From a virus (taxonomy: Duplodnaviria > Caudoviricetes): a DNA stretch of 24,715 bases. The notes beneath the pieces are model-generated. The model had not been told where the DNA came from. It saw only the letters and a list, made by a program, of their open reading frames with translations, and searched no databases. This document shows, piece after piece, positions 6,219 through 23,242 of the stretch. Both the position numbers and the translations under genes were made by a program. The stretch is taken from positions 1-24,715 of IMG/VR virus record IMGVR_UViG_3300030330_001443. One strand, given 5' to 3'. Within the stretch, counting starts at the first letter, position 1. The number at the start of each line of letters is the position of its first letter.

Positions 6219-6249
6219 TGGAGGAGGGTTTTGGCTCTCCTCCATTTTT
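6219..6249 (+). terminator. Intrinsic terminator or stability hairpin after the major capsid gene
   Basis: Stem TGGAGGAGGG (6219-6228) / CTCTCCTCCA (6235-6244) with one G:U pair, then TTTTT. Confidence 0.8.
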
Positions 6250-6262
6250 ACCAACAAAAGAT

Positions 6263-15458: not shown

Positions 15459-15840
15459 CAATTTACTCGGTGGATTATTTACCACACTATCAAAACAAGC
15501 ATCTACAATAATAGATGAAACAGTTACCACAAAAGAAGAAAAGTGGAAACTAAAAAATGAATTTCACAAAATACTTATTGAAAGCGAAAAGTCAGCCCAA
15601 CAAGAGGTTACAAAACGCTGGGAAGCTGATTCTAAAGCTGGATGGCTACCAGCTAATATAAGACCCCTTACATTGATATTTTTGACTGTTATGTTTGTTA
15701 TAATGTCAATATTTGACGGCAATGTTGGAAATTTCACTATTGATGATGCTTACAAACCAATTTATCAAACTTTACTTATAACCGTTTACGGAGCTTATTT
15801 TGCTGGTCGCTCAATTGAGAAGGTAAAAAAGAAACAATGA
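15451..15840 (+). CDS. Holin, GTA 3TM-like family
   Basis: RWEADS...WLPANIRPL and YFAGRSIEK motifs; transmembrane segments. Confidence 0.85.
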   Translation: MINNLLGGLFTTLSKQASTIIDETVTTKEEKWKLKNEFHKILIESEKSAQQEVTKRWEADSKAGWLPANIRPLTLIFLTVMFVIMSIFDGNVGNFTIDDAYKPIYQTLLITVYGAYFAGRSIEKVKKKQ

Positions 15841-16895
15841 AAAATCAAAAGCGATACCGTCTTAGTGAAGATGAATGGCGATTGATTGATGATTATAGAC
15901 AAGACAAAGAAAACAAAGCACTACTAGAAGAAGAATGTAACGAAGCTGGAATTGATGTAAGATCTGTGCATCATTATTGGTATAAGAGCAAACGCTTTTC
16001 AATATTTGCCAGACCAAATGAGTTCTCAAGAGATGAATTTCTGAAAAGTATTGAGGACTTAATATCTAAATATTCCCCTTCATATCCATCTATTGACTAT
16101 CCAAAACGCAAAGAGGGACATCTTTTGGTAATAAACCCCGCAGATGTTCATATTGGTAAATATGCAGACGCTTTAGAAACAGGGAACACTTACAATGTAA
16201 AAACAGCTAGAAAACGCATTTTGAACGGTGTTAAAGGCATTATCTCCAAGTCTGAGGGGTTCACCATTGAAAAAGTCTTATTCTGCATAGGAAACGATAT
16301 TTTACACACGGACAATATTCACGGAACCACTTCAAGAGGAACTCCACAGAATACTGACGGTAAATGGTATAGACACTTCACCACAGCTCTTGAGGTATAT
16401 GTTGAATGTGTCGAAATGCTTATGAACATTGCACCAGTTGATTGTGTTCATTCAATGAGCAACCACGACTATATGAGTGGATTCCATTTGGCACACGCTT
16501 TGAAGTCTTGGTTCAGAAATACAGATTCAATAAGTGTGGATGATTCTCCAATTCATAGAAAATATTATGTTTACGGATCAAGTTTGATTGGATTGACTCA
16601 CGGTGATGGGGCAAAAACGAACAATTTAGCTCTCCTAATGGCTCAAGAGAAGCCTAATCTTTGGGCTAAGACAAAACATAGATACTGGTATTTGCATCAT
16701 ATACACCACAAACAAAGATTCAAATATCTTACGAGTTTTGATGATATTGGAGTAACACTTGAGTTTTTAAGAAGCCCTAGTGGAACGGATGCGTGGCACT
16801 TTCAAAAGGGTTATACAGGCAGCCCTAAAGCTGTTGAAGGTTTTATACACTCAAAAGAAAATGGTCAGATTGCGCACTTGACACATATATTTTGA
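15837..16895 (+). CDS. Calcineurin-like metallophosphoesterase
   Basis: Motifs DVH, GND, SNHD, THGD, HHIHH. Confidence 0.85.
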   Translation: MKNQKRYRLSEDEWRLIDDYRQDKENKALLEEECNEAGIDVRSVHHYWYKSKRFSIFARPNEFSRDEFLKSIEDLISKYSPSYPSIDYPKRKEGHLLVINPADVHIGKYADALETGNTYNVKTARKRILNGVKGIISKSEGFTIEKVLFCIGNDILHTDNIHGTTSRGTPQNTDGKWYRHFTTALEVYVECVEMLMNIAPVDCVHSMSNHDYMSGFHLAHALKSWFRNTDSISVDDSPIHRKYYVYGSSLIGLTHGDGAKTNNLALLMAQEKPNLWAKTKHRYWYLHHIHHKQRFKYLTSFDDIGVTLEFLRSPSGTDAWHFQKGYTGSPKAVEGFIHSKENGQIAHLTHIF

Positions 16896-16903
16896 TATAT
16901 TTG
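16896..16903 (+). promoter_or_regulatory. Bacteroidetes-type -7 element TATATTTG
   Basis: Exact TAnnTTTG match directly after the phosphoesterase stop, with no ORF between it and the next terminator. Confidence 0.55.
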
Positions 16904-16907
16904 CGCT

Positions 16908-16980
16908 GTTTTTGGTAAATTAATAAATTTTTCATTGTTTTTGTAAGGGATTTGGGGCTTTTTAGCCCCTTTTTCTTTTT
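16908..16980 (+). ncRNA. Candidate ~70-nt small RNA
   Basis: Bracketed by a -7 promoter element and an intrinsic terminator; U-rich body containing UUUUUCAUUGUUUUU, antisense to A-rich AUG contexts. Confidence 0.45.
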
Positions 16981-16987
16981 TATTTTT
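16954..16987 (+). terminator. Intrinsic terminator at the end of the late region
   Basis: GGGGCT-TTTT-AGCCCC stem followed by a long T-rich tract. Confidence 0.85.
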
Positions 16988-17086
16988 ATAGTTTTTAACA
17001 GCCCTTCTTATCTAGTATTGTTAATTATTTTCTAATTTATTCAACTTTTTTTTGTTGAAATCCTTTTTTAATTGGTTGGGAGTGCA

Positions 17087-17094
17087 TATATTTG
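17087..17094 (+). promoter_or_regulatory. Early promoter -7 element TATATTTG
   Basis: TAnnTTTG 30 nt upstream of the first early gene, in the largest AT-rich intergenic region. Confidence 0.7.
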
Positions 17095-17124
17095 CTGCAT
17101 AATTATTAACGAAAACACAAAACA

Positions 17125-17421
17125 ATGACAAAAGATTTAATCAACAGCTTATTCTTTAATCCTAAAGAGGAGCTAAAAACAAGAGTTCTGAATGCTGATA
17201 TTGTAGAAGCTACTATCAATCAACTTATCGCAGAACTCAAAGAACAAGAGATGCGAAACGCCGAGCTTATCAAAGTGTATGAGCAAGAAGAAGACTTTGC
17301 TGACTTAGCACTAACTCAAGGCGTAAACAAAGGGCTTCAAATAGCATTGATACATTTGCGTAAATTGAATGCCGATATATTATGGAAACAATTAAATATA
17401 AAAATCGATGAAAACGATTAA
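17125..17421 (+). CDS. Hypothetical helical early protein
   Basis: A-rich SD-less start (CACAAAACAATG); first ORF after the early promoter; no recognised motif. Confidence 0.75.
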   Translation: MTKDLINSLFFNPKEELKTRVLNADIVEATINQLIAELKEQEMRNAELIKVYEQEEDFADLALTQGVNKGLQIALIHLRKLNADILWKQLNIKIDEND

Positions 17422-17533: not shown

Positions 17534-17952
17534 TGAAAAAGAAAGTTTTAAATGTAACACCACAGGGGGACTTTGAAAGTCAATACGGACACTTTTATAA
17601 ATGGGAAATAGAGTTTGATGATATGAAAGCAGAATATCTAAGCAAGTCTGAAAATCAAAACAAGTTTGTTGCTGGTCAAGAAATTGATGTTGAAATAACT
17701 ACAAGACAATATAACGGAAGAAGCATAAACAAAGTAAAACCATTATCTACTTTTCAAGGTGGATCAAGACCATCCCCAAAAGCAGATAATGTTCAAGAAC
17801 TAATAGTTAAGCAAAACGCTCTGACAAACGCCTGTAATGTGATTGGAGAAGCTGATGTTGCAAAGATTATAGAAGTGGCTGAGGTGTTCTCTAATTGGGT
17901 TCTAAAAGGCGAAAAGCCAACCTCAACAACGAAAAATGATTTACCGTTCTAA
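17533..17952 (+). CDS. Putative ssDNA-binding protein (beta-rich N-terminus, NDLPF tail)
   Basis: C-terminal DLPF typical of SSB-like proteins; start moved to the coupled ATG 17533. Confidence 0.6.
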   Translation: MKKKVLNVTPQGDFESQYGHFYKWEIEFDDMKAEYLSKSENQNKFVAGQEIDVEITTRQYNGRSINKVKPLSTFQGGSRPSPKADNVQELIVKQNALTNACNVIGEADVAKIIEVAEVFSNWVLKGEKPTSTTKNDLPF

Positions 17953-19235: not shown

Positions 19236-19610
19236 TATTATAATTACAAACTTTGGGAAGATTACAAAAATGGAATGTATGAAAAGGGAGTTGAAGAAAA
19301 CTTAATAGAAGAATGTGTTTTACTTCTTTGTAATAAAAAGCATTTTTACGAAAATGGAAAACTAATGCTAAAAACTTGGATTTATTCAAGTGAGCAAAAT
19401 TTAACTAATAACGACATTAACCAAAAAGCTTGGATTGGTCAAGCTACTTGTAATTTTAGATTTAAAGCTAATATAGATACTGTTATAGAGTCTTGGCATA
19501 AATTAACCCAAGAACAACAAAAAGAAGCTAATTATGTAGCTTCTATACTAATAAACGAATACAAAAACAATAAAAAAAATATATTATGCCCAAAACTAAA
19601 CTTGGAATAA
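19224..19610 (+). CDS. Hypothetical protein, first gene of the YbdN/YbdM cassette
   Basis: WEDYKNGMY and NLTN...NQKAWIGQA.C motifs; overlaps both neighbours. Confidence 0.8.
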   Translation: MDKKYYNYKLWEDYKNGMYEKGVEENLIEECVLLLCNKKHFYENGKLMLKTWIYSSEQNLTNNDINQKAWIGQATCNFRFKANIDTVIESWHKLTQEQQKEANYVASILINEYKNNKKNILCPKLNLE

Positions 19611-20839
19611 ATGTTCTTCAAGCATCTGAAGAAAGAATAAAATGGTCTTTTGATAACTTTGAAAAATTATATATTAGTTTATCTGGTGGTAAAGATTCTA
19701 CTACTATGCTTCATTTAGTTCTTAATGAAGCTATTAAAAGAAATAGAAAAATAGGTTTATTTATTGTGGATTTAGAGGCACAATACAAACTAACAATAGA
19801 AAACATAAATAATTTAATAACTGAATATAAAGATTATTTAGATGTTTATTGGATATGTTTACCAATATCATTAAGAAATGCTGTAAGCGTGTATGAACCA
19901 AAATGGATTTGTTGGGATGAAGATAGAAAAGATGATTGGGTAAGAGAAATGCCAAAAGATTGTATAAATGGTATTGATTATTTTAATTTTTTTCATAAAG
20001 GAATGGAGTTTGAGGAATTTATAGAACTTTTTGGCGAATGGTATTCAGATGGCAAAAAAACTGGTTGTTTTGTAGGTATAAGAACTGATGAAAGTTTAAA
20101 TAGATTTAGAACTATTGCTTCTAATAAAAAAACTACAATTGATGGTTTGCAATATACTACAAAGGTTACAGATAATGTTTATAATCTTTACCCTATTTAT
20201 GATTGGAAAACATCTGATATTTGGGTTTACCACGCTAAAACAGAAAAAAGTTATAATAGATTATATGATTTAATGCATAATGCTGGACTTACTATTCACC
20301 AAATGAGGTTATGTCAACCTTATGGAGATGACCAAAGAAGGGGGTTATGGTTGTATCACTTAATAGAGCCCAATACTTGGGCAAAAGTTGTTGCAAGGGT
20401 AAATGGTGCAAATAGTGGGGCTTTATATGTAATGGAATCTGGAAACATAAATGGATATCATAAAATAACAAAACCAGAAGGACATACTTGGAAATCATTT
20501 GCAGAAATGTTTGTTGATTCATTACCCCCAACAACAAAAGAACATTATCAAAACAAAATTATACTTTTTCAAAAATGGTGGATTGAAAAAGGTTATCCAA
20601 ATGGAATACCAGATGAAGCCGACCTCAATTTAGAATCTAGAAGATTAGTTCCAAGTTGGAGAAGAATATGTAAATCACTTTTAAGAAATGATTATTGGTG
20701 TAAAGGTTTAGGATTTAGTCAACATAAATCAAATGCATACAAAAAATATTTGCTTTTAATGAAAAAAAGAAAAGAACAATGGAATGTTAATCAATTAACT
20801 ATATTTAAAAATGACAACGGAAATTATAAAACAAATTGA
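19586..20839 (+). CDS. ybdN: YbdN/IbrA-like PP-loop (PAPS reductase fold) protein with DUF3440
   Basis: SLSGGKDS, GIRTDES..R, YPIYDW...DIW, GLWLYHLIEP, PSWRRICK.LL.NDYWC closely match E. coli YbdN as I recall it. Confidence 0.92.
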   Translation: MPKTKLGINVLQASEERIKWSFDNFEKLYISLSGGKDSTTMLHLVLNEAIKRNRKIGLFIVDLEAQYKLTIENINNLITEYKDYLDVYWICLPISLRNAVSVYEPKWICWDEDRKDDWVREMPKDCINGIDYFNFFHKGMEFEEFIELFGEWYSDGKKTGCFVGIRTDESLNRFRTIASNKKTTIDGLQYTTKVTDNVYNLYPIYDWKTSDIWVYHAKTEKSYNRLYDLMHNAGLTIHQMRLCQPYGDDQRRGLWLYHLIEPNTWAKVVARVNGANSGALYVMESGNINGYHKITKPEGHTWKSFAEMFVDSLPPTTKEHYQNKIILFQKWWIEKGYPNGIPDEADLNLESRRLVPSWRRICKSLLRNDYWCKGLGFSQHKSNAYKKYLLLMKKRKEQWNVNQLTIFKNDNGNYKTN

Positions 20840-21467
20840 AAAAATTAAAAATTTAGATTTAGAACAAAAAGTTAAATGTATAAATGAAATAAAAATAGCT
20901 TTACACGAAATAAGTCCCTTTAATACAGAGCCAGTTGATTGTGTTATTTGGGTAAAAAACGAAACGGTTTACGCTAACGATTATAACCCAAATTCGGTAG
21001 CACCTCCAGAAATGGAACTTTTAAGACATTCAATTTCAAACGATGGTTATACTCAACCAATTGTTAGTATGAAAATAAATAATACAGAAAGAGAGGTTAT
21101 TGATGGGTTTCATAGAAATAGAGTTGGTAAAGAATGTAAAGATATTCAAAAAAGGGTTTACGGATATTTGCCAGTAGTAACAATTAGAGAAACACAAGAA
21201 AATAAAGGAGATAGAATTGCTTCTACTATTCGACATAACAGAGCGAGAGGAAAACACAGAATTGATGCAATGTCTGAAATTGTTCTTGATTTGAAAAAAA
21301 GAAATTGGAGTGATAAAAAAATTGCTAAAGAATTAGGAATGGATCAAGATGAAGTTTTAAGATTGAAACAATTAACTGGCTTAGCTGAATTATTTAAAAA
21401 TCAAGATTTTTCAGAGGCTTGGGAAGCAGAAATACAAGAAACTGAAAAAGAAACTATAAATGGATAA
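20811..21467 (+). CDS. ybdM: YbdM/IbrB-like ParB/Srx-domain protein with C-terminal HTH
   Basis: EPVDCVIWVK, NDYNPN.VAPPE, DGYTQPIV, DGFHR, TIRHNRARG, LGMD.DEVLRLKQ. Confidence 0.92.
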   Translation: MTTEIIKQIEKIKNLDLEQKVKCINEIKIALHEISPFNTEPVDCVIWVKNETVYANDYNPNSVAPPEMELLRHSISNDGYTQPIVSMKINNTEREVIDGFHRNRVGKECKDIQKRVYGYLPVVTIRETQENKGDRIASTIRHNRARGKHRIDAMSEIVLDLKKRNWSDKKIAKELGMDQDEVLRLKQLTGLAELFKNQDFSEAWEAEIQETEKETING

Positions 21468-22808: not shown

Positions 22809-22876
22809 CAATGAGGTGTTAATATTTTTTAACCTCAACGATTGGATAATAGAATCATTATTTTATTTTAGCAACA

Positions 22877-23242
22877 ATGACAAAAATTAGTACAATATTT
22901 GAAGGAGGAATTGCTAAGGTTGCAACCCTTGCAGATGGTTCACTCTCACTAACGATACACACTCAAGAGCTACCAGAAGAAACAATGATGAGACTATTTA
23001 AGCTAAGAAAAAAACCAGGAATGGTCCTTATTAGTTCGGATGGTATAAACAAAAAAGAAGTTGAAGAAGTCGAAAAGTTCACAAGTGATTTTGAGGTTGG
23101 AGGTAAAACACCAAGTCAAAGACTAAGAGCTGTACTTTATAGAGTATGGGAGCAAACAGAGCAGAATTATGATTTTCCTATTTGGTATGAATCACAGCTT
23201 GAAAGAATAATCAATAAATACAAAGCGACTCTGGATGCCTAG
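22877..23242 (+). CDS. Conserved-looking phage hypothetical protein
   Basis: DGSLSL...TQEL and GKTPSQRLRAVLYR.W motifs. Confidence 0.78.
   Translation: MTKISTIFEGGIAKVATLADGSLSLTIHTQELPEETMMRLFKLRKKPGMVLISSDGINKKEVEEVEKFTSDFEVGGKTPSQRLRAVLYRVWEQTEQNYDFPIWYESQLERIINKYKATLDA

Follow-up and report, generated by a model that had tools for sequence, protein, structure and literature searches.

A widely conserved candidate small RNA gene whose predicted seed varies jointly with the first early-gene start in a family of tailed phages

The window analysed here, i.e. the whole 24.7-kb tailed-phage record (24,715 nucleotides), carries between its lysis genes and its first early gene a compact cassette consisting of a -7 promoter element, a short body and an intrinsic terminator. 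This cassette is likely to be a widely conserved candidate sRNA gene, with the phage's own early genes as its predicted targets. Comparison of related phages showed, at the level of sequence, that the seed in the body and the tag at the start of the putative target vary jointly between phage families. Because the body varies in step with the start of its own first early gene, it likely makes an sRNA that lowers early-gene translation; more specifically, we regard it as fairly probable that a trans-acting sRNA of ~70 nt blocks ribosome loading on tagged early and middle gene starts. A preliminary description of this DNA had proposed a promoter- and terminator-bounded non-coding unit with a body antisense to initiation regions lacking a Shine-Dalgarno (SD) sequence, and this general proposal was supported.

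The record is linear (CheckV estimate, 53%), and all of its recognisable genes are on the + strand (Table 1). The cassette doubles as the 3' end of the phosphoesterase gene, and the protein encoded by the first early gene matched no known family. The PAPS-reductase-like and ParB-like genes (19586-21467) are, judged by size, missing at the equivalent place in the close relatives listed, and this pair is perhaps an accessory module with a role in DNA modification. Matches to the phosphoesterase were found in three Flavobacteriaceae genomes (52-56%) and in Flavobacterium phages (45%); these matches, together with the TAnnTTTG promoters and the SD-less leaders, point to a Bacteroidota host. Among cultured phages, the best phosphoesterase matches were 43-50% identical and the nearest terminases ~44%, and no DNA-level match of the window was found. 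In the two cultured-phage regions inspected, the gene after the phosphoesterase begins within 4 and 68 bases, so that the comparison revealed no cultured phage with the cassette. The cassette was likewise absent from five phosphoesterase matches in prokaryote genomes and from the distant viral matches L234 and L237-L239, and the sequence of L233 stops at the phosphoesterase gene. Within the phage family, no tyrosine integrase (PF00589) was detected in 10 records, no resolvase (PF00239) in 4 and no Cro/CI-type HTH_3 repressor (PF01381) in 5, several of the records searched being complete, with terminal repeats. The searched records thus gave no sign of a lysogenic state, and the group is apparently a lytic siphovirus family of 25-33 kb.

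Table 1. Features of the cassette, its predicted targets and its genomic surroundings in the window
Feature	Position	Strand	Description
Late side of the window		+	Terminase, portal, capsid, connector, tail genes, endolysin, holin and phosphoesterase-like gene; upstream of the cassette
Phosphoesterase start match	15832..15845	+	14-nt complement; possible secondary target, clade A/A2 only
Metallophosphoesterase-like gene	15837..16895	+	PHROG 704 'DNA repair exonuclease'; follows endolysin and holin as the last gene
Cassette -7 promoter element	16896..16903	+	TATATTTG; TAnnTTTG, Bacteroidota housekeeping type; adjoins the phosphoesterase stop codon
Predicted sRNA body	16908..16953	+	U/G-rich, weakly folded
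Seed	16927..16944	+	Complement of the ..AAAACAATG start tag
Intrinsic terminator	16954..16987	+	6-bp GC hairpin (16954-16969), then a U-run
Early promoter -7 element	17087..17094	+	Predicted start A17099; kept with -33 TTG in relatives
First early gene leader	17099..17128	+	A/C-rich, SD-less; start codon 17125; main predicted target
First early gene	17125..17421	+	98 aa
Early/middle genes 3' of the cassette		+	DnaA-type HTH, replication initiator, PAPS-reductase-like, ParB-like, NinG, HNH
Complement near the PAPS-reductase-like gene	19560..19571	+	12 nt; 15-26 nt upstream of the gene

The -7 element and the terminator were confirmed at the positions previously described, as were the exact 14-nt complementarity of positions 16927-16940 to the phosphoesterase start (15832-15845) and a 10-nt complementarity to the first early start (17119-17128). 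From the promoter layout, the transcript would start at G16908, five bases past the -7 box. The cassette fold has a z score of -2.4. Positions 16935-16944 of the seed, which face the early leader as a potential toehold, are predicted to be open (unpaired probability 0.8-0.9), and the CA of the seed CAU lies inside a weak predicted hairpin (unpaired probability 0.2-0.3). The base composition of the bodies (18% G and 6% C) differs from that of the spacer behind the terminator (5% G and 13% C). No second copy of the body exists within the window. In the early promoter of the window, a T run (17060-17075) lies where close relatives carry the -33 TTG (spacer 20), and this promoter may be weaker than in these relatives. 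Elsewhere, a TAnnTTTG box at 2110-2117, immediately past the large-terminase stop and 5' of the portal gene, is possibly another -7-only internal promoter. A -7-like box at 22860-22877 is located a few bases 5' of the ATG of a gene for 121 aa, and relatives show a similar layout; the mRNA of this gene is a candidate leaderless mRNA.

The layout of the cassette is strongly conserved. A phosphoesterase search yielded 596 relatives, of which 80 were listed, 71 of them with enough downstream DNA to be scored. In 65 of the 71, a -7 box at the phosphoesterase stop is followed by a hairpin and a U-run. The -7 box is shifted by ~38 nt from the stop but still kept in three others (L035/38/39), and in L061 the phosphoesterase stop has been lost and the protein is six residues longer, with the -7 box and terminator retained. 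The same-locus search suggested by the preliminary description therefore recovered the layout in 69 of the 71 scorable relatives (65 + 3 + 1), the exceptions being L025, which has no cassette, and L078, which has no clear -7 box. A scan for the junction pattern, which selects for the -7 box and is thus no measure of prevalence, gave at least 237 matches, including at least 97 new sequences. Among 98 junction sequences examined, a terminator was recognized by script in 88 and a weaker hairpin by eye in 5; of the remainder, 3 continue directly as an apparent reading frame and 2 seem to be unrelated. In the former three (L368, L398 and L413), an ATG that opens the apparent frame, and not the cassette, comes within a few bases of the stop and -7 junction, so that the slot appears exchangeable between the sRNA and a short-leader gene. 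These three loci and the retention of the box despite its displacement or the loss of the stop suggest that the box acts as a promoter. The -33 TTG at spacer 19-20 was found in none of 110 cassette promoters, in contrast to 99 of 109 early promoters; a -33 motif is likewise not identifiable in Flavobacterium johnsoniae (PMC7366714). The hairpin and U-run agree with the definition of an intrinsic terminator: the hairpin shows compensatory, two-sided changes at 5 of 10 predicted pairs among 12 close relatives, and 40 distinct terminator hairpins occur in the second set of sequences.

The distance from the cassette start to the first early ATG ranges from 144 to 509 nt across all families. In X1-X3 loci such as L252, the cassette and the early promoter are separated by a spacer that looks as if it were made of short degenerate repeats. 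Hypervariable short early genes occupy the first 2.6 kb after the cassette in L006, L008 and others, each with an ..AACAATG tag, and 48 loci contain 0-4 such tagged starts. A scan for a promoter followed by TTTTTCATTGT gave 57 stretches, compared with 33 for a control seed; terminators, scored for the TTTTTCATTGT matches alone and hence not comparable with the control seed, were present in 11 of 39 distinct matches, 5 of these 11 being from the present phage family. Five other viral contigs (L102, L111, L118, L119 and L135) contain a -7 box, an TTTTTTCATTGT seed near the start and a terminator ~40 nt further on, and are probably further units of the same kind.

Taken by itself, the window provides evidence that is suggestive only; the layout is convincing because of its conservation in relatives. 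Dinucleotide shuffling produced a match of at least 14 nt to one or more of the 42 start regions in 84 of 5000 trials (1.7%) and, when the whole + strand was considered, in 62 of 1000 (6%). Complements of at least 8 nt were found at 16 of the 42 starts, compared with 8.8 expected (p 0.012). In accessibility-based binding, the first early start reached -15.9 kcal/mol (rank 2 of 42 starts), against a background of -6.1 +/- 2.6 for 116 non-start windows. The best duplex in the window, near the PAPS-reductase-like gene (-18.1), nevertheless lies within the coding end of the preceding gene; values for the start at 17952, the replication initiator and the phosphoesterase were -15.8, -14.0 and -13.7, respectively. 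An 8-nt complement between 16912-16919 and the connector leader (6247-6254), previously taken as a further match, does exist, but its duplex is at chance level (p 0.55), and it was rejected as a target.

The main evidence for pairing comes from the joint variation of seeds and tags. Bodies were grouped by eye into 21 families in total, and pairing with the own leader was compared with pairing with the leaders of other families. In the first set (12 families, 48-49 distinct body/leader pairs), own-leader pairing was favoured by shared 7-mers (p 0.0003), duplex energy (p 0.0003) and longest match (p 0.0045). The held-out set comprised 39 pairs from 9 new families, with a maximum of 8 members per family; 7 bodies outside any family were excluded, as was every locus in which no early start could be parsed. 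This set gave the same result (p 0.00017 for 7-mers and 0.00001 for duplex energy). The effect also holds separately within two deep clades (p 0.005/0.002 and 0.012/0.021). Controls in the first set that used the phosphoesterase, holin and pre-holin starts, the spacer or the sense orientation were all null (p 0.08-0.64), and the spacer control was null in the held-out set, too. When all 13-27 available starts were ranked for each of 33 bodies, the first early start came first or second in 23 cases. Among 111 distinct pairs, all 27 CTATG starts are accompanied by a CATAG seed and none of the 62 CAATG starts is; conversely, 27 of 34 CATAG seeds face a CTATG start (the other 7 do not) and 14 of 15 CATTG seeds face CAATG, with no crossed combinations.

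The X1 family provides a more specific example, its seed CATAGCGT mirroring the start tag ACGCTATG. In the near-complete X1 genomes G005-G008, 12 of 12 coding-strand copies of ACGCTATG are located at the start of an ORF (background, 13-15%), and all 12, which include orthologous genes, are downstream of the cassette, in early-cassette, ERF-like annealing and methyltransferase genes. No coding-strand copy of this sequence exists in G002, G003, G004 or the window, and G009 contains five copies with just 1 at a start. As regards the earlier claim that phage genes are the targets, the conserved predicted partner is the first early gene, together with similarly tagged early/middle genes; the phosphoesterase start may be a secondary target in clade A/A2, and the connector match is at chance level.

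Part of the signal has a simpler origin. A parallel, non-pairing 7-mer control was weaker yet positive (p 0.006 in the held-out set and 0.0004 overall), and a reversed-body energy control was positive overall (p 0.007) and in clade X (p 0.014) and null in clade C-K (p 0.80). These orientation controls show that low-complexity, quasi-palindromic A/C repeats carry part of the signal, in line with the caution in the preliminary description that low complexity makes chance matches plausible. At about 7-13 nt, the matches are also short, and they are rich in A and U; by 7-mers, some families fit poorly, their own leader ranking 17th of 21 (X3), 10th (F) or 9th (D). In a tree of 42 rows, from which X9 is missing, every CATAG family falls in one clade; the families are therefore not independent, and the CATAG switch counts as a single event. 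Further matched changes of seed and tag (X4, X1, X7, D/H and G) appear nested in the tree.

These controls bear directly on an alternative that we consider unlikely, namely that the cassette is merely a terminator or insulator of the late operon and that the body, as an inverted leader relic or a result of AT bias, has no pairing function. No other strong + strand terminator separates the lysis genes from the early promoter, and the late/lysis transcript probably ends here as well; the lack of a canonical -33 element and the partly positive orientation controls fit this explanation as well. A terminator, however, has no need of the -7 box, which is kept in nearly all scorable relatives even when displaced, and the explanation accounts neither for the GC-containing, non-palindromic match to ACGCTATG nor for the null results with the spacer and, in clade C-K, with the reversed body.

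The position of the predicted duplexes is consistent with repression of translation initiation. Matching 7-mers cover the AUG in 6 of the 21 families, and most of the others pair at about -22 to 0, a zone that spans the leader positions -3, -6, -12 and -13, at which adenines drive initiation in F. johnsoniae (PMC6847099). The CAU-containing seed, the loss of which in relatives had been regarded as an argument against an sRNA, is conserved in just 61 of 116 distinct bodies and missing from the other 55, so that this argument applies by half; bodies without CAU pair with the A/C-rich leader upstream of the AUG.

The RNA might instead mainly silence host mRNAs that start with MKK or MKN, such as those for receptors, with the phage matches being incidental. 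In two Flavobacteriaceae genomes that served as stand-ins for the true host, complements of at least 9 nt were present at 20 of 256 crudely called starts, as against 8.3 +/- 3.5 in 40 block shuffles, and 29 of the 256 begin with ATGAAAAA; host transporters are also the targets of FopS (see below). We nevertheless consider this quite improbable, given that the seed tracks the phage's own tag family by family and that nearly half of the bodies lack CAU. In addition, the phage tags are rare in stand-in genes (1 of 256 starts for AAAACAATG and 0 of 256 for ACGCTATG), 6% of stand-in starts (median) equal the own leader in pairing, and counts of the 13-mer target in three Flavobacteriaceae genomes were 1, 5 and 5, compared with 0, 1 and 5 for controls.

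To about the same low degree, we would credit an RNA that, in the manner of c4, defends against incoming relatives or maintains a carrier state by shutting off early genes with the matching tag. The seed/tag pairs have diversified into many versions, reminiscent of the c4 specificities that differ between P1 and P7 and underlie their heteroimmunity (PMC12197685), and the host-type promoter could work without phage proteins. However, the searched records contain no integrase, resolvase or Cro/CI-type repressor, and neighbouring families cross-pair widely, so that the specificity would be blurred.

Feedback by the RNA, as a 3'-end product, on its own upstream phosphoesterase gene, the start of which had been put forward as a match, appears very unlikely as the main function. 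All 10 distinct A/A2 bodies have a match of 11-14 nt, and G005 one of 9 nt, but there is no cognate effect at the family level (p 0.26/0.23), the match falls to 4-10 nt in other families, and it is weak in G004, G007 and G008. In the clade of the window, it is longer than the match to the early start (7-11 nt), and the phosphoesterase start may therefore be a real second target there. A minus-strand gene for a short protein beginning at the CAT (MKNLLI...) has hardly any probability and was rejected: the reverse complement resembles a Bacteroidota start and contains a 30-codon frame in the window, but among relatives the frame length lies anywhere between 1 and 99 codons, and the CAT is missing from the same 55 bodies.

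Under the favoured reading, a trans-acting sRNA directed against the phage's own early starts, host RNA polymerase with the housekeeping sigma factor would transcribe the ~70-nt RNA from G16908, and extra RNA would be supplied as the 3' end of the late transcript, terminated at the same hairpin. Through its open U/G stretch, the RNA would bind the A/C-rich start of the first early gene and of similarly tagged early/middle genes, covering the initiation window from -13 to +7, the Bacteroidota substitute for an SD sequence, and thereby blocking ribosome loading. Such an RNA could act as a timer, with the early genes firing on entry and then being damped as the RNA accumulates. A bolder extension, which we regard as doubtful, is that an exchangeable sRNA and its matching early tag constitute an RNA-only master switch in phages without integrase or repressor, the versions of seed and tag serving as an identity code that silences incoming relatives or holds a carrier state.

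Gene timing in Bacteroidota phages, which lack SD sequences and often recognisable repressors, has been little studied, and the cassette offers a simple, reporter-testable answer in the form of one short RNA against one start tag, for which the natural swaps of seed and tag are ready-made compensatory mutants. The phage family is aquatic and widespread, spanning hundreds of environmental contigs as judged from the phosphoesterase relatives, and a compact rule for designing translational repressors in Flavobacteriia could be drawn from the cassette. The literature searched, which included few subscription papers, yielded no account of an RNA of this type from Bacteroidota phages.

Two groups of known RNAs invite comparison. 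GibS (PMC7366714) and FopS (PMC11697453) of Bacteroides thetaiotaomicron repress by pairing at the start region of their targets, which in the case of FopS are SusC-like transporters, and an FopS-like sequence has been noted in one Caudovirales phage (PMC11697453). They have in common with the cassette a housekeeping -7 promoter, a single-stranded AU-rich 5' stretch and an intrinsic terminator, all predicted in the cassette, as well as repression by pairing at an SD-less start, to which computational covariation points in the cassette. FopS belongs to a multicopy family bound by RbpB; the cassette body occurs once in the window, and its predicted targets are phage genes. Unlike the conserved R1 seed of FopS, its seed varies and tracks the phage's own tag. 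The FopS covariance model (RF04319) gave no match at E <= 10 in the genome of the window and matched the control, B. thetaiotaomicron, and a search of Rfam, C4 included, gave nothing above the gathering score in positions 16700-17200 of the window or in 17 loci. The second group comprises c4, which pairs sequence-specifically near the ribosome-binding site, and sar of P22, both of which block translation of the phage's own mRNA (PMC12197685), as is predicted for the cassette RNA. Both c4 and sar repress an antirepressor in temperate phages, whereas the cassette phages show no integrase, resolvase or HTH_3 in the searched records, and their RNA is predicted to target several tagged early/middle genes. 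The cassette also lacks a large structured core. In this phage family it occupies a fixed slot after the lysis module, and its seeds fall into 21 families. By analogy, the cassette RNA is likely to work like GibS, FopS and c4, but it is not itself an FopS.
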